Made by a program: the position numbers and the translations under genes. From contig OY762463.1 of the NCBI GenBank assembly GCA_963665815.1, positions 544,001 to 608,000 of the forward strand: a DNA stretch of 64,000 nt. Reading direction: 5' to 3'. Source of the stretch: Candidatus Cloacimonadales bacterium (GTDB lineage: Bacteria > Cloacimonadota > Cloacimonadia > Cloacimonadales > JAIOQZ01). The notes below the pieces were generated by a model. It searched no databases and was not told the DNA's origin. It saw only the letters and a program-made list of their open reading frames with translations. Below, in pieces: positions 21,156-50,789 of this stretch (position 1 is the stretch's first letter; every line of letters begins with the position of its first letter).

Positions 21156-22226
21156 ATGAGAAAACAATATTTATTGTATTTATTTATAACTTGTCTATTG
21201 CAGATTGTTTCCTGCAAAACGTCAGTTTCTCGAAATATTGACGGTGTAAATATCATAGAGAATAAAAACTGCGATATTGTTAATTTCAATTATGAACCTG
21301 AAACTACCATATCAGATAGTGAAGAACACGAAATCTTTTTTTCTAGAATTGTTGATTTAGATGTTGATTCTGATGGTAATATTTACATTCTTGATGGAGA
21401 TAAATGCAGTTTGTTCAAATACTCAAAAAATGGGGACTTTGAAAGACAATTCTGTTCTCAAGGTAAAGGTCCTGAAGAATTGCTGTTTCCTGAAAGCATG
21501 ACAATAACTGAAAACAATGAGATATTTGTTTATGATGGAGGTAATCAGAGAATATCTATCCTGAATACTGAAGGCAAATACTTAAGAACAATTAAAACTG
21601 ACATTGTTTTAGGTAGATTAGAATCATATATGAGTAATATTCTTGTATCTTCAAGCAGTTTAGAAAGCTTTAGTGAAGCTCAGGAATATTATTTCCATGA
21701 ATACGATTCAAACATGAAGCATATTAAGTCTTTTGGTGAATTTATGCCTGAACTGAAAACTGAGGAAAACTATCTGTTGAAATGTTCAGTGACTTCCACA
21801 TGTAACAATATTGCAGTTAACTCATATATAGCTTCAACTGTATCTGATATTTTCAAAGATGGTGTTCTATCTTACAGAGTAGTAAGACCTTTACCATACA
21901 AACCTGCTAAATCAGGTCAAAAAGAAAAAAACATTTATGAAGTTGATGTTGTCACAAAAAGTGTTGCAGTATCTGATGAGGGTGAAATTTTTTACCTGAC
22001 TGCCGGCTATAAAGAACATAAGGACGGACAACCTGCTCTCAGTTATTTAGACGTTACTACATCTGATGGCTTGATGTACAACCGTTATAGCATTAATAAA
22101 AATATCAGCATGATTCATGTTGATTCATTCAAAAGACTATTTCTTGTAGATTCCGAAAATCAGAATATTCTTGTCTATAATTCTGTTGTTGATAATGTTG
22201 AATCTGCAATGAAAAAAAAGAAGTAA
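21156..22226 (+). CDS. 6-bladed beta-propeller (NHL-type) lipoprotein
   Basis: Lipobox IVSC; DVDSDGNIYILD and GKGPEEL..P repeats. Confidence 0.8.
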   Translation: MRKQYLLYLFITCLLQIVSCKTSVSRNIDGVNIIENKNCDIVNFNYEPETTISDSEEHEIFFSRIVDLDVDSDGNIYILDGDKCSLFKYSKNGDFERQFCSQGKGPEELLFPESMTITENNEIFVYDGGNQRISILNTEGKYLRTIKTDIVLGRLESYMSNILVSSSSLESFSEAQEYYFHEYDSNMKHIKSFGEFMPELKTEENYLLKCSVTSTCNNIAVNSYIASTVSDIFKDGVLSYRVVRPLPYKPAKSGQKEKNIYEVDVVTKSVAVSDEGEIFYLTAGYKEHKDGQPALSYLDVTTSDGLMYNRYSINKNISMIHVDSFKRLFLVDSENQNILVYNSVVDNVESAMKKKK

Positions 22227-43787: not shown

Positions 43788-43821
43788 AAGCCTGTTGGAT
43801 ATTCAGCAGGCTTCTTTTTTT
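43788..43821. terminator. Intrinsic terminator between convergent genes
   Basis: AAGCCTGTTG...CAGCAGGCTT hairpin followed by a T tract. Confidence 0.75.
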
Positions 43822-43827
43822 ATAGAA

Positions 43828-45270
43828 TTATTTAAAACTGTTATTGTAAAACTCCATCAGATTACCTGTCTTTCTCTCTCCAAGTTTTTCAAGAATGGAC
43901 AAGTACAACATAAGAGAATACTCATAAGAGTCTTTTTCTGAATTACAATTATAATAATGAGGTTTGAACTCATCATTCAGGGCAAAATGAGCATAACACA
44001 AAGAGCAAATCTCTTTTATCCAGCAATTCGAGCAGTACTTTTCTTTGAAATCAAAGAATTTCTGCAACATACTCTTTATTTTACTACGATTCACCCATGA
44101 ATCAACATTACCTATCCTGAAACTGTGATCCATCTTTTCGCATACATAGAAATCACCATTAGTTGTGACCATAAGACTTCCATCTTCTGTATCAAGACAT
44201 ATTCCGCCCTTCCTGTAACTATTCTTTCTGAAGTGTATTCTCAACAAGTTCTTCACCGTTTCATCATCAAAGAAATCAAGTCTTTTACTTATAACTCGCT
44301 CAAGTAGATTGTCAAACCTGCTTCTTTTGTATTCATTGGATAGATTTTCATAATATTCTCTATTTTCAGCGAATTTGACTCTTTCATCATGTTTACATAC
44401 AATCATTGAGATTTTCTTAAGCTTATACTCAGGGTTGTTTTCACGATATTTCATCAGTTCCAGATAATCCTCTGTTGTTTCAATTGTAGAAACAAAGTTA
44501 AGTCTTTCTTTGCAAAAATCAGGATACCTTTTCTGAAACAGCTTTATATTATTCATTACCTTATCATATGTTGGCTGATTACAAAGATCTACTCTATTTT
44601 TATTATGCATTTCTTTGGGACCATCTACAGTTACAAGAATCCTTAGATTGTTTTCAACAATGAAATCCTGCATAGCTTTTGTCATTACAGAACCATTTGT
44701 AGTAAAATGATATTCAATATCCAAATCAATTTTATTGATCTCCTCCACGAAGTACTTGATAAGATCAAAATTTAGACAAGGTTCTCCACCGTAAAATCCT
44801 ATTGTCAGCATATCTCCGGCAGTATAAATTTTTTTTATCCATCCTAAGACTTTATTGGCTGTTTCGAATGTCATATTTTCATTGGACAAGTCTTTAGTAT
44901 GGTTATAGTTTTCTCCATATATACAATATTTACATCTGAAGTTGCAGTTATCTGTAACATTAACAGTGAGTAGGTCCGGCTTATAGATACTGTTCTGTTC
45001 TATATTATCCAGAATTTCTATCTTTTTCTTGCGTATATCCTGCCGTACAAATCGTTTACTGAATTCAGAAATATAGTCATATACCTTATCTGCCCCATCT
45101 TCATTATTACTATAACTGATAAAGCTATTCTTAGATAAAGACCATACATTTTCCAGAATATCATCCAGCTTTTGATTTATTTTTAGAATTTCACTTGTAT
45201 CCGAATTATACAGATAATAGTTATCCCTTGTCTTTATTCTCTTCAAATGAGTACTTTCATTGTTTAACAT
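43828..45270 (-). CDS. Radical SAM/SPASM peptide maturase (Cys-rich peptide maturase, CcpM-like)
   Basis: RRE-like N-terminus (KTRDNYYLYN), CNFRCKYC, FYGGEP, SPASM motif GIC..V..NG.FYVCEK..IGNV..CSNCWIKEICSLC..C. Confidence 0.9.
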   Translation of the reverse strand: MLNNESTHLKRIKTRDNYYLYNSDTSEILKINQKLDDILENVWSLSKNSFISYSNNEDGADKVYDYISEFSKRFVRQDIRKKKIEILDNIEQNSIYKPDLLTVNVTDNCNFRCKYCIYGENYNHTKDLSNENMTFETANKVLGWIKKIYTAGDMLTIGFYGGEPCLNFDLIKYFVEEINKIDLDIEYHFTTNGSVMTKAMQDFIVENNLRILVTVDGPKEMHNKNRVDLCNQPTYDKVMNNIKLFQKRYPDFCKERLNFVSTIETTEDYLELMKYRENNPEYKLKKISMIVCKHDERVKFAENREYYENLSNEYKRSRFDNLLERVISKRLDFFDDETVKNLLRIHFRKNSYRKGGICLDTEDGSLMVTTNGDFYVCEKMDHSFRIGNVDSWVNRSKIKSMLQKFFDFKEKYCSNCWIKEICSLCYAHFALNDEFKPHYYNCNSEKDSYEYSLMLYLSILEKLGERKTGNLMEFYNNSFK

Positions 45271-45337
45271 AAAAAATCCTTTATTAATTAAAAGAAGAAA
45301 TCTGATTGTTAATTTTGTTTATTAATTAATGATTAAT

Positions 45338-45517
45338 TTACACACCGTTTGCTGTCATTCCGCCGGTTCTTGTAAAACCACCGGTATTATCGTATGCTGA
45401 CGCTGATTTCTCGCCTGATTTTATACATGCTCTTGTGCATGTACATGTACTAGAAGTCCCTGCTTCTCCAGTAGCCCCTGAGGATACTATAGTTACATCA
45501 TTTAACAAATTTGACAT
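45338..45517 (-). CDS. Putative RiPP precursor peptide (59 aa, CTCTRAC)
   Basis: RBS AAAGGAG before ATG 45517; Ser/Thr/Gly/Cys-rich; directly upstream of the maturase (ORF extends to 45565). Confidence 0.8.
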   Translation of the reverse strand: MSNLLNDVTIVSSGATGEAGTSSTCTCTRACIKSGEKSASAYDNTGGFTRTGGMTANGV

Positions 45518-45565
45518 CTTATCTCCTTTCCCTACTACCCGAATCAGATTTCTTCTACTTTCCAT

Positions 45566-46540
45566 TTATATTGTATATTTGTATATCTTCTCCATTCTGA
45601 TATCGACAATGAACACATATTCATCAGTAATAACAACTGAAGACTCAAAAATTCTGTGTTTTTCAGGTAATTCATACTGCTTTAAAACTTTTCCATTTTT
45701 ATTGATAAGAACCAGACAGGATTGACAAGCCTCTACATTGGTTTTATAGTTTCCGTATTGAATTTCTTTACCATACTTGTTACCATTAATAAATAGCCAG
45801 ATGCCATTATCATTGCTTCCACAAATATATGCTGCCGTCCCATCATCATACTTCAAATCAAGATCAACCAGTTCAAGTATTCGGCTGCTTTCTCCCTCCT
45901 CGAAATATTTAATACTGAATTGATTATCCTTATAGGTAGACGCAAATAAACAATCATCTTCCAACCAGAATGATCGCCCATTCTGATCTTCCTTGAAGTA
46001 TTTCTCAAATCTGGAATACTCTTCAATTTTGTCTTTAGATAGTTTATAAATTTTGTTATCCGGAATCAATTTGTAACCGAAATCTCTACAGTAAACGTTA
46101 CCTCCGGAGACAATTAAATTATCTGTTCTAACATTACTGAATTCACTGATATACTTTCCATCATAATCAAATAAAGATACTCGGGAGTTTCCAATATCGC
46201 ATACATATAGTATTGAATCTTCAGTTCCTGTTATTGAAACAACCTGAAAGAATTCTCCTGGTCCACGCCCTTCATTTCCAAATTTTGAGATGAGACTTAA
46301 ATCATCAACATTGTACATGTAAATACCATTAAACTCATCTGCGACGTATAAACGATCATCAATTACAGTTAAATCCATTGCAAAAGACATATCAAAATCC
46401 AGACTATCAGCAGAGGTTAAATACTTGATTGAGTCATTACTATCAGAGCATGAAATTATGAGAAAACAATTAACTGAAAGCATGAGAAACATAACAATAA
46501 AATGAAGTCTTCCTTGTGATTCTACATTAACAATATTCAT
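45566..46540 (-). CDS. 6-bladed beta-propeller (NHL-type) lipoprotein
   Basis: Lipobox IISC; FGNEGRGPGEF, LYVCDIGNSRVSLFDYDGKY. Confidence 0.82.
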   Translation of the reverse strand: MNIVNVESQGRLHFIVMFLMLSVNCFLIISCSDSNDSIKYLTSADSLDFDMSFAMDLTVIDDRLYVADEFNGIYMYNVDDLSLISKFGNEGRGPGEFFQVVSITGTEDSILYVCDIGNSRVSLFDYDGKYISEFSNVRTDNLIVSGGNVYCRDFGYKLIPDNKIYKLSKDKIEEYSRFEKYFKEDQNGRSFWLEDDCLFASTYKDNQFSIKYFEEGESSRILELVDLDLKYDDGTAAYICGSNDNGIWLFINGNKYGKEIQYGNYKTNVEACQSCLVLINKNGKVLKQYELPEKHRIFESSVVITDEYVFIVDIRMEKIYKYTI

Positions 46541-46807
46541 ATTACACCTTTTTATGGATTAAGTCCATATATTTTTCTACAAGAAATGCCTTATTTGTTA
46601 AGACCTTTGCATAATTGTTAAATCAAAAAAAATCAACCAGTATGTAAGCTCTTATATTATCATTTTTTTACTAAAGATTCATTTTTATGTCAATAAAAAA
46701 AATATTCCGGATAGAGATTTATCAATACTTGAAATGAATATAAAAATGAAAGCTAAATATAGGTAAAAATTCAGAAAATACAGTATTATAAATAGTTATA
46801 TTAAATG

Positions 46808-48346
46808 CTAATTCTTAATCTTAACTGACAACTCCGTTATCCTGTTACCATTAACAGCATAAAGGCATTTTTTAACATGATCATACTCACTGATCATTTC
46901 GATATCATCCATAAAGGAATACGTTGATATTACCTTTCCGTCAACACTACTTACAAACTCTATTTTCATGCCGGTTATTCTCAACAATACACTATTCTTC
47001 AGTCTTTTCTCTTCAAAGAAAGATATCTGAATCGGGAAGACAGTCTTTCCCAGTCTTTTAACCGGATTATATTCTACTGATTTTCTCCAGATTTCTTCAC
47101 CTGTTTTTCTGTTAATGCAAATCTCTTCTTTTTTTCCGCATAACAGAATTCTATTGCCATCAATGAGTTCTGTATGTAAAATATTTTGTCCTGCTGCATA
47201 TTCCCATTTCTTTCTGAAACTCCTTCTCATATAAGCAGTCAAAGTATTACCTGTACAAACATAAAGATGTTTTATGTCAAACATTGGACTGGAGCATACA
47301 CTATTTTCCATCACAATAGAATCCGTGCTTTCAACAATAATTTCTTTCGCAGGCTGAGTCATTTTACTGAGATAATCCTGAATAAACTCTTCTACTTTTT
47401 CTTTCTCAAACTTCGGATACAATTCTTTCATTCTTGTTGTTACATTAAGAGTAATATCTTCAATATCAGTATTTCTGATGTTCTCCTGAATAAGTGTCTT
47501 AAGGATTGAAAGCTGATTCTCAACTTCTCTATTGCCGAACATATTGTACATAACAGATGATATCAGAAGAGCAGTAATAATGATTGTTCCTATAGTTTGA
47601 GCCTTTATCTTGAAGAAAGATTTCCCTTTCTCGTATTTTGCCGGAACAGTAAACAAACAGTATGGATAAGGATTAATAAGATATACTTCTTTCAGATTCT
47701 CCTCAATTGTTCTTGGATGAATTCCTTTTGCCAGAAGTTTTTCAGTTGCACCTGAAAACAGAATTGTAAACATTTCTGCATCAGTTAACTCAACTTTATA
47801 TACTGGTATTTTAATATCAACGCTTTCTGCACCTAAGAGATTAAGTTCTTTCTGGGATTTTACTCTGGCATTATCCCACTTCTCACCTATTTGACTGAAG
47901 AGATCTTCTTCAGAATTTCTTTTTACAATACCACAAAGCATTCTCCCAAACTGTACAATGTATATTCTGTTCTCATAACTCATCATGAAGCATAAAGAAA
48001 GCCCCTTCTCATTAACTTTTGAGAAGATGTTTTTGTTTTTCTCAGATAGATTCTCAGCTGTCTTGAAAGCAATCTGTTTGAACAGATTGCTTAACTGCCA
48101 GTTCAGTTTCTGAAAAACATCTTTCAACTGAGATTCAATGCCTGATTCTTTCCAGTCATTTTTCAGCAGCTCATTCAGAATAATCTGATTAATCTGTTTT
48201 AATCTGTAATCAGAGTTATATGAATGAGTAAGTAAAGCAAAATTGCGATTCCTGTTCTGAAAAAAATCAGTATATACATAGTAATTGTTTACGGAATCAT
48301 TATTCTCCTGACTATTATTCTCGGAAAATGCCTGCAGACACAGCAT
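46808..48346 (-). CDS. Membrane protein with PP2C-like N-terminal fold and PQQ/BamB-like beta-propeller C-terminus
   Basis: LSLCFMM...RIYIVQFGR resembles PP2C strands; one TM; WEY / TGEEIW propeller motifs. Confidence 0.5.
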   Translation of the reverse strand: MLCLQAFSENNSQENNDSVNNYYVYTDFFQNRNRNFALLTHSYNSDYRLKQINQIILNELLKNDWKESGIESQLKDVFQKLNWQLSNLFKQIAFKTAENLSEKNKNIFSKVNEKGLSLCFMMSYENRIYIVQFGRMLCGIVKRNSEEDLFSQIGEKWDNARVKSQKELNLLGAESVDIKIPVYKVELTDAEMFTILFSGATEKLLAKGIHPRTIEENLKEVYLINPYPYCLFTVPAKYEKGKSFFKIKAQTIGTIIITALLISSVMYNMFGNREVENQLSILKTLIQENIRNTDIEDITLNVTTRMKELYPKFEKEKVEEFIQDYLSKMTQPAKEIIVESTDSIVMENSVCSSPMFDIKHLYVCTGNTLTAYMRRSFRKKWEYAAGQNILHTELIDGNRILLCGKKEEICINRKTGEEIWRKSVEYNPVKRLGKTVFPIQISFFEEKRLKNSVLLRITGMKIEFVSSVDGKVISTYSFMDDIEMISEYDHVKKCLYAVNGNRITELSVKIKN

Positions 48347-48355
48347 AATAGCCTC

Positions 48356-49438
48356 CTATGTCCACCATCTGAAAAATGATCTGTAAGTAACTCTTATTAA
48401 TGTAGGAATATCCATCAGCATGTTTGTGTAAGATGCGTTGGCAAGAGGACAATAGCATTCTTTATTTTTTATGGCTATTCTCTCTTTAACCATTTCCTTT
48501 GAGTTCCATATCTTCCTGAAGTTATATTTATGGTCCCTGAGATTCCCTACTGATTTTGCTTTTATACAACATGCCCATACTTCTCCATCCGGAGAAATCT
48601 GTACAGAAGTAATACCTGCATAACATGGAATAATCTGAGTTTTATCTCTGAGTATTTTCTTTACCAGATTGTAATATTCTATCCTGAATGCCTGAGTAAT
48701 CTTGGACATCCCGGTGTATTTGTTGTTTTTAATCCTGTGAATAAGAAAATCTATGGCAGAACGATAATCCAAAACCGTTGGAGTAATTCCGGAACCAATA
48801 GTATCCAGCTCAACTCGTTCTTCTGCAATCTCAGTAATGTAAGAATCAGGTTCCATATTCATTAGGGTATTTGCTATTTTTGCAAAGTTCTTAACATTGA
48901 ATCTGGAGATGACAGTATGGAATCCTATTGAGAAGTTAGGAGATTCTATCTCTCTGAGACGCTTATAAGTAGCAAGGACTTTCTCATAATTACCTTTAAC
49001 ATTTCTGATATTATCATGTTCTTCAGCAATGCCATCAATTGAGAGATTTATAATGATCTGTGTTTTCTTACAGTAATTTACTATTTCCAATACGCTCTGA
49101 GCAATTTTATCTGTCAAAATTCCGTTTGTTGGAATATTAATTATTTTAGGGCGACAGTAATCATATGCCATTTTGCAGATTTCTACTATTTCCTTATGAA
49201 GAAATGGTTCCCCACCACTTAATGTAAACCAGTATGGAGAATGACTGATGGACTTAAATACTTTTCTGTATTCATCCAGAGTAAAATTATCTGCTTTTTT
49301 GCGATAGATATTACATGTACTGCACTTTGAGTTACATCTATATGTAAGACTGATTGTGTAATTCATCGGCATTATTCTTGGAAAACCAAGAGCTCTGAAA
49401 CATTTATAAGCAAATATTTTAGGAATTATTTCCAACAT
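48356..49438 (-). CDS. Radical SAM protein with SPASM/Twitch domain
   Basis: CNSKCSTC, SGGEPF, SIDG, CYAG...ISPDGEVWAC..GNL. Confidence 0.9.
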   Translation of the reverse strand: MLEIIPKIFAYKCFRALGFPRIMPMNYTISLTYRCNSKCSTCNIYRKKADNFTLDEYRKVFKSISHSPYWFTLSGGEPFLHKEIVEICKMAYDYCRPKIINIPTNGILTDKIAQSVLEIVNYCKKTQIIINLSIDGIAEEHDNIRNVKGNYEKVLATYKRLREIESPNFSIGFHTVISRFNVKNFAKIANTLMNMEPDSYITEIAEERVELDTIGSGITPTVLDYRSAIDFLIHRIKNNKYTGMSKITQAFRIEYYNLVKKILRDKTQIIPCYAGITSVQISPDGEVWACCIKAKSVGNLRDHKYNFRKIWNSKEMVKERIAIKNKECYCPLANASYTNMLMDIPTLIRVTYRSFFRWWT

Positions 49439-49441
49439 AAC

Positions 49442-50332
49442 TTAGACCTTCCTGGATAAATTCTTTGTAGACTCGGCAATATCCCATTTAAAAGGATTCT
49501 TCTTGAGCAGATTGAAATCAATCCAGCCAAGAACTCTTCCGTATATTTCAAGCATCATTGTTGCTGCAAGTCTGCAAGTATTCATTGGGTGAATTGCAAT
49601 CTCTGCCAACATAATTTCCAGAAGAAGCATGGAATTTTGAGATGTAACCTGATAATTGTGCTCTTTCTTCAACCAGATATGACCGGCAGCAATTCTTCTT
49701 CTCTGCTTAATAAAATCTTCGATATTTTCAGGACCTTTATTGTGTACAATTGCTGAAGGAATATAAACTTTCCTGAGACCCTGTTCTTTTATCACAGCTT
49801 CTATACTGGCTTCATCAACCGCACTTTCTTCCGGAATGGATTTTACAACATTCCTGAAAGCAATCATTTCACCCAGTTTGGGCTCATGTAATGCCATAAT
49901 ATGATGAAAATGCCACATGATATTTACAGCATAGCCTACCAGTGTATCATCCGGGTTTTCAGGTACAGGTCTTCCCCCGCTCATGCCAACTTCGGGATTA
50001 TCAAACACTGAAATCATTTTTTCTACCGTTGTTGGAGCAGGAATAGTATCACCGCTCTCAATTACGAGTGTTTCTGAATTTGCAGCTTCCAGAAACATGT
50101 TTATTGCAGCGGATTTTCCACGTCTTTCAGGTTCTGTAATCAACTTTATACGCTTATCTTTCTGTTCATATTCTTTGACAATATCATCTGTTCGATCTGT
50201 ACAGGCACTGGATACAACGAAAATTTCTTTAATACAGACTTTCTCAAGCTCCTGTTTCAAAAGTGCATCAAGCAGCTTGGAAATATTCTTTTCCTCATTG
50301 TATACAATAACGCCTATACTACAGTTAATCAT
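49442..50332 (-). CDS. Glycosyltransferase family 2
   Basis: IVYNEE, CTDRT, RRGKSAAIN, QRRR; start overlaps the nusB stop. Confidence 0.88.
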   Translation of the reverse strand: MINCSIGVIVYNEEKNISKLLDALLKQELEKVCIKEIFVVSSACTDRTDDIVKEYEQKDKRIKLITEPERRGKSAAINMFLEAANSETLVIESGDTIPAPTTVEKMISVFDNPEVGMSGGRPVPENPDDTLVGYAVNIMWHFHHIMALHEPKLGEMIAFRNVVKSIPEESAVDEASIEAVIKEQGLRKVYIPSAIVHNKGPENIEDFIKQRRRIAAGHIWLKKEHNYQVTSQNSMLLLEIMLAEIAIHPMNTCRLAATMMLEIYGRVLGWIDFNLLKKNPFKWDIAESTKNLSRKV

Positions 50333-50789
50333 CTTTCTTTCCCTTATCATCCCTGTTTTCATGGGCGATTGTATTCAATACACCATTTATGAATTTCCCG
50401 GATTTATCAGAACAGAATTTCTTGGCCACTTCTATAGCCTCATTTATGATTATCGGAGACGGTACCTCTGAAAAAAGAATCTCACCTGTAGCAATTCTCA
50501 TAATATTTTTGTCGAGAATAGCTATTCTGTCAAACTTCCAGTTCTTGGCGTATTTACCGATTTCTTCATCTATTGCTTCTATGTTTGATAAAGTTGTTTT
50601 TAGAAGATTATCGGCAAAAGTGAATATTCCACTTTCGATTTCAATATTGTTTGACTCTGCCACATCGTTCAACACTTCAGTATATTGTCCGATGTATGCC
50701 AGATTGCCAAGAACCGGATCCTCTTCGTTGAAGTCCAGTATGTATAATGTCTGTAAAGCTACTTCTCGAGCTTTTCTGCGAATTCCCAT
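50325..50789 (-). CDS. nusB: Transcription antitermination factor NusB
   Basis: RRKAREVALQ.LY, W...RIA.LD..I.R, INEAIE.AK.F, FINGVL. Confidence 0.95.
   Translation of the reverse strand: MGIRRKAREVALQTLYILDFNEEDPVLGNLAYIGQYTEVLNDVAESNNIEIESGIFTFADNLLKTTLSNIEAIDEEIGKYAKNWKFDRIAILDKNIMRIATGEILFSEVPSPIIINEAIEVAKKFCSDKSGKFINGVLNTIAHENRDDKGKKDD

Follow-up and report, generated by a model that had tools for sequence, protein, structure and literature searches.

A very divergent candidate CcpM/CteB-like radical-SAM peptide cassette, with a propeller lipoprotein and an RNA helix around the precursor gene, in a Candidatus Cloacimonadales genome

What is made by a compact cluster in which the gene for a short Cys-containing peptide lies between those for a predicted lipoprotein and a radical S-adenosylmethionine (radical-SAM) enzyme, and does the lipoprotein have a part in it? 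The question is raised by positions 43828..46540 of a stretch of 64,000 nt from a Candidatus Cloacimonadales bacterium. The whole stretch is referred to below as the window, and its propeller, peptide and maturase genes as the cassette. A sequence-only reading of the window had suggested that the cluster might represent an undescribed class of ribosomally made, post-translationally modified peptide (RiPP). The data presented here favour, on balance, a working thioether RiPP cassette of the CcpM/CteB-like kind, the product of which would be exported and then bound by the propeller lipoprotein. Judged by its sequences, the cassette belongs, as a very divergent variant, with the radical-SAM peptide systems of the CcpM/TIGR04149-like kind. 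Two of its features go beyond the routine, namely the link to a propeller lipoprotein and an RNA helix around the precursor open reading frame (ORF).

The ORF list and the sequence show that the propeller, peptide and maturase genes are co-oriented, all on the minus strand, and that each of the three intact ORFs has a Shine-Dalgarno site. A strong ribosome-binding site, AGGAG, serves the 59-aa peptide, and a gap of 67 nt (45271-45337) separates the peptide gene from the maturase gene; these points had been read correctly from the sequence at the outset. The parts of the cassette are as follows.

45566..46540, minus strand: predicted NHL-type six-bladed beta-propeller lipoprotein, 324 aa (ORF; Pfam DUF5128, 9e-6; profile against the TRIM71 and Thin NHL domains, 7.7e-37; AlphaFold, Foldseek)
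46448-46540, minus strand: predicted signal peptide of the propeller, with lipobox Cys31 (lipobox pattern)
46253-46270, minus strand: conserved GxGPGE NHL motif of the propeller
45542..45556, minus strand: 5′ arm (mRNA sense) of the long-range helix, perfect over 15 nt (inverted repeat I10; fold)
45523..45527, minus strand: Shine-Dalgarno AGGAG, 5 nt before the peptide ATG (sequence)
45338..45517, minus strand: precursor peptide, 59 aa (ORF, sequence, homologous peptides, alignment, genome-wide profile search)
45476-45496, minus strand: leader box VTIVSSG of the peptide
45425-45445, minus strand: peptide core C25-x-C27-xxx-C31
within the peptide gene, minus strand: tail residues Y42 and G53
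45293..45307, minus strand: 3′ arm of the long-range helix, 30 nt past the peptide stop and 22 nt ahead of the maturase ATG
43828..45270, minus strand: peptide maturase with RiPP recognition element (RRE), radical-SAM and SPASM parts, 480 aa (Pfam, NCBIfam, alignment, AlphaFold, PDB matches)
45052-45246, minus strand: RRE-like N-terminus of the maturase
44923-44946, minus strand: CxxxCxxC of the maturase
between 43945 and 44199, minus strand: seven SPASM Cys of the maturase

The frame listed for the peptide is 75 aa long (45565..45338), and an internal ATG at 45517 gives the 59-aa product. The shorter form is preferred because the homologous peptides all start there and because the extra 16 codons contain one arm of the RNA helix. 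The 75-aa start was ruled out on the same two grounds.

Comparisons were made within the window's own genome (G000), with a sister species (G001) and with a genome from another family of the same order (G136), all within a sample of 232 species genomes of this small phylum. Outside the phylum, 159 loci with related maturases were used, 79 from genomes and 80 from metagenomes. The cassettes referred to most often are, in addition to that of the window, L003 and L004 (both in G000, each with a maturase), L086 (in G000, without a maturase), L006 (G001) and L110/L192 (G136).

The maturase is, by sequence and predicted fold, a full-length RRE/radical-SAM/SPASM enzyme of the CteB/CcpM-like type. Pfam models matched Radical_SAM (8.3e-16), Fer4_12 and SPASM, the last at 21.1 bits, just under its cut-off of 21.5. 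Among the curated NCBIfam models, the best was that of CcpM, TIGR04068 (residues 10-463, 215.6 bits, 1.2e-63, cut-off 500); this is the comparison that had been recommended as a check, and it upholds the proposed CcpM-like relation, yet below the cut-off. Lower scores were obtained with the models for RumMC (162.8 bits, cut-off 720), TIGR04148 (160.1 bits, cut-off 300), PapB (130 bits, cut-off 340) and QhpD (TIGR03906, 121.4 bits, 3.8e-35, cut-off 453). In an alignment of 34 sequences, the radical-SAM Cys residues C109, C113 and C116 are invariant, as are the seven of the SPASM array, which would hold two auxiliary clusters (C358, C377, C413, C416, C422, C425 and C442). The AlphaFold model (pLDDT 83.5) places in residues 9-73 a pattern that would fit an RRE, with strands at 9-13, 18-22 and 27-31 and helices at 33-42, 47-53 and 60-73. 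The RRE-like N-terminus, the CxxxCxxC motif and the full SPASM array seen in the sequence-only reading are thus borne out, the first of them in a predicted structure.

Foldseek gave CteB (5wgg) as the top PDB match over 484 columns (E 2.4e-19, identity 19-20%), followed by anSME, TigE, ChlB and SuiB, and phmmer against the PDB again placed CteB first (6.8e-19). The closest relatives in a collection of 5.8 billion proteins are 31-32% identical. The domain architecture is shared with the ranthipeptide systems CteB/thermocellin and PapB/freyrasin and with the sactipeptide system RumMC, but the identity to CteB is low and the PapB and RumMC models fall far under their cut-offs. Precursors of the CteB, PapB and RumMC types carry CX3D repeats and SCIFF motifs, and the motif of the window precursor is unlike these.

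In the proposed mechanism, the RRE of the maturase would bind the 59-aa peptide at its short N-terminal leader box, and the enzyme, with three Fe-S clusters, would tie Cys25, Cys27 and Cys31 to carbons of other residues as thioethers. A thioether product is suggested because the homology and fold extend over the full length of the enzyme, because a Cys is invariant in the peptides and because the surroundings of the CxC are rich in D, E and T. These three residues, frequent within and after the CxC of the peptides, are acceptor types in the QhpD, PapB and CteB systems. Attachment at an alpha carbon (sactionine) and at a beta or gamma carbon (ranthionine) are both compatible with the sequence, which does not tell them apart.

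A different chemistry, such as oxidation of Cys as in anSME, formation of a C-C cross-link or epimerization, would also be consistent with a maturase that lies under all cut-offs and whose next structural matches after CteB are anSME, TigE, ChlB and SuiB. Moreover, the links made within the CcpM/CLI_3235 group are themselves unsolved: for SacP23, a CLI_3235-family peptide active against Gram-positives, they are given as 'to be elucidated' in the relevant part of PMC10731318. Against this stand the identity of the sole invariant residue of the peptides, a Cys in the CxC, and the fact that the best relatives by profile and fold form thioethers, which make any of these other chemistries improbable.

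No match to the peptide was obtained in Pfam or NCBIfam, even at E values up to 10, in agreement with the earlier remark that no precursor family was recognized in it. Homologous peptides are encoded at the same position in L003, L004 and L086 of the same genome, in L006 of the sister species and in L110/L192 of the other family, and further related peptides lie next to related maturases in metagenome-assembled genomes (MAGs) from other phyla. Ten peptides, drawn from the four G000 cassette loci, the sister species, the other-family genome and the MAGs from other phyla, were aligned. Their common layout starts with an N-terminal box of the I-V-S-S-G type; after a spacer follows the CxC core, and the tail contains an aromatic residue and Gly. 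C25 is the sole invariant residue and G53 is nearly so. The twin TGG motifs noted earlier are present, but in the window peptide only; beyond Gly53 they are not conserved. It is apparent, therefore, that an adjacent peptide is conserved in both position and motif, in the paralogous cassettes as well as in distant ones, although the peptides are only about 25-40% identical between cassettes.

A profile of four peptides, run against 56,133 small ORFs of G000, retrieved only the three cassette peptides that were part of it and a fourth small ORF that was not (E 0.0013), which adjoins a propeller gene. The likeness among these peptides is thus above chance. The ten-peptide profile retrieved 11 proteins from the protein collection, which are the input peptides and three close variants only. 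Likeness of the peptide to FibroRumin/CLI_3235 precursors in a protein atlas (0.78-0.80) was discarded as being under the level that counts.

Whether the cassette constitutes a class of its own was assessed from the related loci. In a crude scan, 114 of the 159 loci proved to have, within 1.6 kb of the maturase, a small ORF containing one or more CxC; two loci have no maturase ORF. Part of these small ORFs surely arose by chance, and many are obvious alternating-Cys precursors. At L078, no CxC peptide was found in the available flanks. On these sequences, CxC is a hallmark of the whole CcpM-like superfamily, and the CxCxxxC of the window is a minimal version of it. The suggestion of an undescribed RiPP class is accordingly not sustained: because CxC peptides mark the whole superfamily, the cassette is regarded as a divergent CcpM/TIGR04149-like member. 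The chemistry of this group is unsolved, and a peptide with three Cys and a compact maturase would be among the simplest substrates with which to solve it.

The resemblance to the CcpM/CLI_3235 system of Firmicutes (TIGR04068) consists of the highest score among the curated models, with an alignment over the whole length, and of short CxC-type Cys peptides encoded beside the enzyme. The differences are equally clear. The maturase score is less than half of the CcpM cut-off, the peptide lies outside the CLI_3235 family and has three Cys only, and its leader is not of the MKKLGKK...SVEAY type of the Firmicutes loci. CcpM-type clusters are described, in the portions of PMC4573289 and PMC10731318 that deal with them, with TIGR04066, TIGR04069 and subtilase partners; none of these was found among the cassette genes or their neighbours. 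Conversely, the window has a propeller lipoprotein, and none was seen in a Firmicutes clade of 73 rows in the maturase tree described below.

The propeller matched DUF5128 and TolB_like in Pfam, and with a profile of five propeller sequences the Thin and TRIM71 NHL domains were matched at values from 1e-37 to 1e-31. In the AlphaFold model (pLDDT 88.6), an N-terminal helix occupies residues 7-29. The best Foldseek matches are six-bladed NHL domains of the Brat/TRIM type; lower ranks include the Bacteroides proteins 3s9j and 4raa, PAL, and the B12-binding surface lipoprotein BtuG. NHL repeats and a predicted six-blade fold are both found, and the signal peptide, which ends ...LIISC at Cys31, fits the lipobox pattern, in line with the NHL-propeller lipoprotein called originally. 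The same pattern was matched in 32 of the 40 members of the family in G000, and in several others the signal peptide closes with a Cys not caught by it.

Nothing points to catalysis by the propeller. The Zn site of PAL is built from several His. Because the mature propeller has one His, such a site is impossible, and a role as a PAL-like peptidyl-hydroxyglycine lyase was rejected on this ground, PAL (3fvz) ranking only 35th by fold.

The propeller belongs to a large family. Its profile gave 40 matches in G000 and 37 in G001, none in G003, G004 or G136 and one weak match in G009. At E 1e-15, matches were present in 18 of the 232 genomes, with one or two copies each outside the genus, and a family of 37-40 copies was found only in this genus. 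Copies are scattered through G000 (e.g. C1:2543421-2547536 and C1:311499-316572), and two further genera of the same taxonomic family have none. One more copy lies within the window itself (21156-22226, plus strand), with a gene for UDP-GlcNAc 2-epimerase on one side and an oxidoreductase/sulfate-activation set on the other. No recurring family of small peptides was found beside the other propeller paralogs of G000. Short repeated DNA, 61-80% identical in translation, was observed near several propeller genes (G000 C1:1191973-1192163, 1194387-1194550 and 1668241-1668384) and may represent a small repeated element.

Three cassettes in G000 each contain a peptide, a propeller and a maturase on the same strand, and a fourth locus contains a peptide and a propeller with no maturase. 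In the window the genes run propeller-peptide-maturase, in the other two cassettes peptide-propeller-maturase, so that the propeller directly adjoins the maturase in two cassettes and in the window the peptide gene alone intervenes. The trio has been kept while diverging: the three maturases are 28-33% identical to one another, the cassette propellers 20-24% and the peptides to the extent given above, with gene order altered. The maturase-less locus corresponds to the cluster seen in G001, which consists of an ATP-binding cassette (ABC) exporter, then peptide, propeller and maturase, and then four more propellers (five in total). The maturase profile at E 1e-60 detected 3 of the 232 genomes (G000, G001 and G136); in an earlier sample it had detected 2 of 41.

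Outside the phylum, a propeller was found beside a related maturase at 6 of the 79 genome loci and 2 of the 80 metagenome loci, in Bacteroidales, Acidobacteriota, Aminicenantes and other MAGs. Co-occurrence of peptide and propeller, which had been proposed as a check, is seen with all maturases of G000, and elsewhere the propeller is present at 8 of 159 loci. A maturase tree (FastTree, 147 rows) was calculated after 16 of 163 sequences, L073 among them, had been dropped for lack of a complete ORF of 381-559 aa or for containing X. The window falls in a long-branched group with its paralogs, G001, G136/L110 and a Gammaproteobacteria MAG (support 91). On this tree the propeller label requires eight changes, four of them forced, and as few were obtained in 1 of 500 shuffles.

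The locus L052 is from a record labelled as a Heimdallarchaeota MAG. Peptide and propeller occur there as two pairs, the maturase is divided between two frames, and an ABC exporter and bacterial-type lipoprotein signals are present; this may be a mis-binned contig or a transferred cassette.

Systems of similar composition are known from Bacteroidales (TIGR04148/TIGR04149/TIGR04150), where a radical-SAM/SPASM maturase and a Cys peptide likewise occur in diderms. A TIGR04148-type locus in the present collection, L079, has a peptide with a GCSCSC core, a propeller lipoprotein, a maturase (336 bits, cut-off 300) and a pseudo-radical-SAM protein, in this order. The window differs in that its maturase scores only about half of the TIGR04148 cut-off, its peptide has no GG leader and no TIGR04149 match, and it is without both the pseudo-radical-SAM partner (TIGR04150) and the peptidase-bearing transporter with HlyD/TolC. 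A cluster of a precursor, a lipoprotein and a radical-SAM pair, in this order, in B. fragilis was already noted in silico, according to part of PMC4573289. No paper linking NHL or propeller lipoproteins to radical-SAM RiPPs was found in the literature searched. The main texts of a survey of Bacteroidales RiPPs (PMC10352776) and of a compendium of about 15,000 RiPP radical-SAM enzymes (PMC10288494) contain no mention of propeller, lipoprotein or NHL, although the supplements of either could list such clusters.

It could be argued that the propeller is a bystander, that peptide and maturase are self-sufficient, and that members of an expanded lipoprotein family are merely scattered through the genome. 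Most of the 40 propellers in G000 have no peptide or maturase nearby, the closest paralog of the window propeller (41% identity) stands alone, an exporter, a peptide and a maturase are present in G136 with no propeller match, and none was seen within the available flanks at 151 of the 159 related loci. Against this, all three maturase paralogs have a same-strand propeller in their cassette despite identities of 20-33% and a changed order, the sister cassette has five, and propellers recur beside related maturases in several phyla. Two propeller clades are purely cassette-linked with members from different phyla (support 96-97), and the locus without a maturase has retained both peptide and propeller. 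A bystander is therefore regarded as fairly unlikely. The recurrent pairing in diderms suggests an extracytoplasmic step such as capture, immunity or sensing.

The absence of a peptidase and an ABC exporter, remarked on in the sequence-only reading, holds for the cassette itself, where neither was found. As regards the exporter, it does not hold for the paralogous cassettes of the genome and the genus. ABC exporters without an N-terminal peptidase part, lacking the first 130-150 or so residues of the peptidase-bearing models, lie directly after the maturase of L003 and beside the cassettes L110/G136, L076, L081 and L052. The product of the window cassette would leave the cytoplasm through such an exporter encoded in a paralogous cassette, i.e. 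in trans. The NHL-propeller lipoprotein would then bind it in the periplasm or at the surface, as a means of self-protection (immunity-like) or as a receptor rather than as an enzyme. A binding role outside the cytoplasm is proposed because the propeller has stayed linked through deep divergence and because the link recurs across phyla; the NHL fold, that of a binding domain, and the single His of the mature protein are in keeping with it. Lantibiotic immunity lipoproteins of the NisI/SpaI type are membrane-anchored and encoded beside the gene for a modified peptide. By analogy, the propeller could be such a lipoprotein, proposed to bind the product outside the cytoplasm, but its fold is unrelated, its host is a diderm and, in its case, binding is presumed.

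Another periplasmic partnership is offered by quinohemoprotein amine dehydrogenase (QHNDH). During its biogenesis, the small subunit QhpC is cross-linked in the cytoplasm by the radical-SAM enzyme QhpD, carried into the periplasm by the efflux ABC transporter QhpF and united there with the remaining subunits (PMC7876137). If the cassette followed the same logic, the cross-linked peptide would not be a secreted natural product; it would combine with the propeller in the periplasm as a small subunit of one functional protein, possibly providing a peptide-derived cofactor. The formal parallel with QhpC, QhpD and QhpF is close: radical-SAM cross-linking of a small Cys peptide, a peptidase-less ABC pump and a periplasmic partner, with peptide-propeller pairs at several loci and TIGR03906 among the maturase matches. 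The QhpB partner in QHNDH is itself a propeller. Nevertheless, the QhpD score is far below its cut-off, and among the window genes there are no homologs of QhpA, QhpE or QhpG. Partners of the cytochrome, protease or flavoprotein kind are absent as well. Quinone formation requires Trp, which the peptide lacks, and is therefore impossible. The window propeller is a six-bladed NHL lipoprotein of a 40-member family, and 37-40 highly divergent propellers, most of them without a peptide, are a poor fit for an obligate subunit, as are peptides whose cores are hypervariable (a leader with 97% DNA identity, followed by a replaced core). A QHNDH-like complex is consequently considered unlikely. An immunity or receptor role would explain better the membrane anchor, the pairs (L052, L086), the tandem arrays, the divergence and the orphan copies.

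Several observations weigh against a working thioether cassette with a dedicated binding lipoprotein. The maturase reaches none of the curated NCBIfam cut-offs and is a member of none of these families. Only three Cys are present in the peptide, a leader cleavage site is not obvious in it, and no protease was found in the cassette, which is also without an exporter of its own. On a propeller tree of 55 rows, the cassette-linked copies of the genus are interleaved with orphans, each cassette-linked propeller has a closer orphan paralog, and the cassette label requires 13 changes as compared with a shuffled mean of 15.9, a value equalled in 27 of 500 shuffles; because of these orphans and shuffles, the link is not one of clean co-inheritance. 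The nearest cassette outside the genus (G136/L192) has an exporter, a peptide and a maturase, and G136 yielded no propeller match. Because G136 has none, the propeller is not needed for maturation, and a model in which it is required was ruled out. Finally, at four propeller loci elsewhere in the phylum there was neither a gene with CxxxCxxC nor a Cys peptide; three of the four hold propeller pairs, and two of these three stand beside efflux-like genes, the latter judged by eye.

Three loci in genomes of one taxonomic family of the phylum (L196, L197 and L198; family f11) show propellers of two subtypes as adjacent pairs, with no radical-SAM gene. In L196 and L197, a neighbouring gene resembles an RND or outer-membrane efflux gene, again by eye only.

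The peptides show, in their sequences, a pattern of conserved leader and hypervariable core. Between L086 of G000 and its counterpart in the G001 cluster, DNA identity is 97% through peptide codon 13 and then breaks; the peptides of both species keep a CDC core despite the replacement, and the flanking arms of the helix are kept as well. The segments compared between the two species are L188 8254-8706 and L189 13454-13723. A broader and rather doubtful extension of the favoured reading would make the whole a peptide-receptor repertoire, in which thioether peptides with hypervariable cores leave through peptidase-less exporters and meet a bank of cognate propellers (immunity or receptor), with the helix serving as a processing stalk. 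The 37-40 propellers might in that event be analogous to orphan immunity arrays.

The second unusual feature is a perfect inverted repeat of 15 nt (45293-45307 and 45542-45556) that encloses the peptide ORF together with its ribosome-binding site. Its arms pair in the minimum-energy fold of the mRNA (z -4.03; 0 of 200 shuffles as good). Analogous arms, differing in sequence, are present in six of the six phylum cassettes (the window, L003, L004, L006, L086 and L192), at the following positions of the five loci other than the window.

L003: 3928-3941 and 4226-4239
L004: 3870-3898 and 4082-4110
L006: 3804-3816 and 4058-4070
L086: 1209-1229 and 1470-1490
L192: 1190-1200 and 1467-1477

Because L006 and L086 share their arms, the six cassettes provide five independent arm sequences. 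Among 4000 random segments of 165-225 nt taken as genomic background, an exact complementary run of at least 11 between the flanks occurred in 0.2% and one of at least 13 in none. When the flanks were shuffled at matched composition, the observed value was reached in 0-5 of 1000 shuffles for each cassette on the better of two measures; L003 qualifies only with one mismatch allowed, and L192 only on the exact run. In the predicted folds of all six segments, the arms are paired (z -1.9 to -4.75). Three of 14 more distant cassettes (L076, L107 and L042) attain the 1% level or better by one of these measures.

Some approaches to the helix were uninformative. RNAalifold returned no pairs for the six helix-bounded segments aligned by MAFFT, in which the arms were out of register and the L004 segment was short. 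The RNAduplex energy between flanks did not discriminate (background mean -21 kcal/mol) and was replaced by the longest complementary run. A local hairpin in the 67-nt spacer was no better than in shuffles (z -0.02), and a scan against Rfam gave two chance-level matches only.

The helix may be a processing-stalk or stabilizing element that uncouples the level of the precursor from that of the enzyme; it would probably set the precursor-to-enzyme ratio via processing or stabilization of the mRNA. No description of a helix of this kind around RiPP precursors was found in the literature searched. If the proposal is correct, the helix would be a compact device for setting that ratio, and a flanking helix would be a useful marker in the search for precursor genes.

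The sister species has no counterpart of the cassette at the syntenic site, where DNA homology ends at 46809, and because of this the cassette is considered accessory. Direct repeats marking it as an insertion were not found in a repeat scan. It might be asked whether an accessory cassette is also a decaying one, with a small ORF that is silent or no longer modified: it has neither exporter nor protease, a sister species is without it, and one related locus has lost its maturase. The three intact ORFs with their Shine-Dalgarno sites, the ten retained cluster Cys and the retained perfect 15-bp helix make such a remnant highly improbable.

A scan for promoters in the window gave 26 sites as compared with 24.6 expected, i.e. 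near background. Two further features border the cassette.

46541..46807, minus strand: non-coding 267 nt upstream of the propeller gene (presumed promoter region for the cassette)
43788..43813, no strand assigned: GC-containing hairpin between the convergent maturase gene and a plus-strand gene of 179 aa (terminator-like site, 11 pairs)

For both convergent transcripts, the hairpin is the likely end. On the other side, the minus-strand stretch 46808-50362, which adjoins the cassette, encodes a 512-aa protein with a weak PQQ-like propeller match, a second radical-SAM/SPASM protein (360 aa, under all curated cut-offs) and a family-2 glycosyltransferase. These genes are taken to be core and to lie outside the cassette, because 82% DNA identity is kept over them in the sister species.

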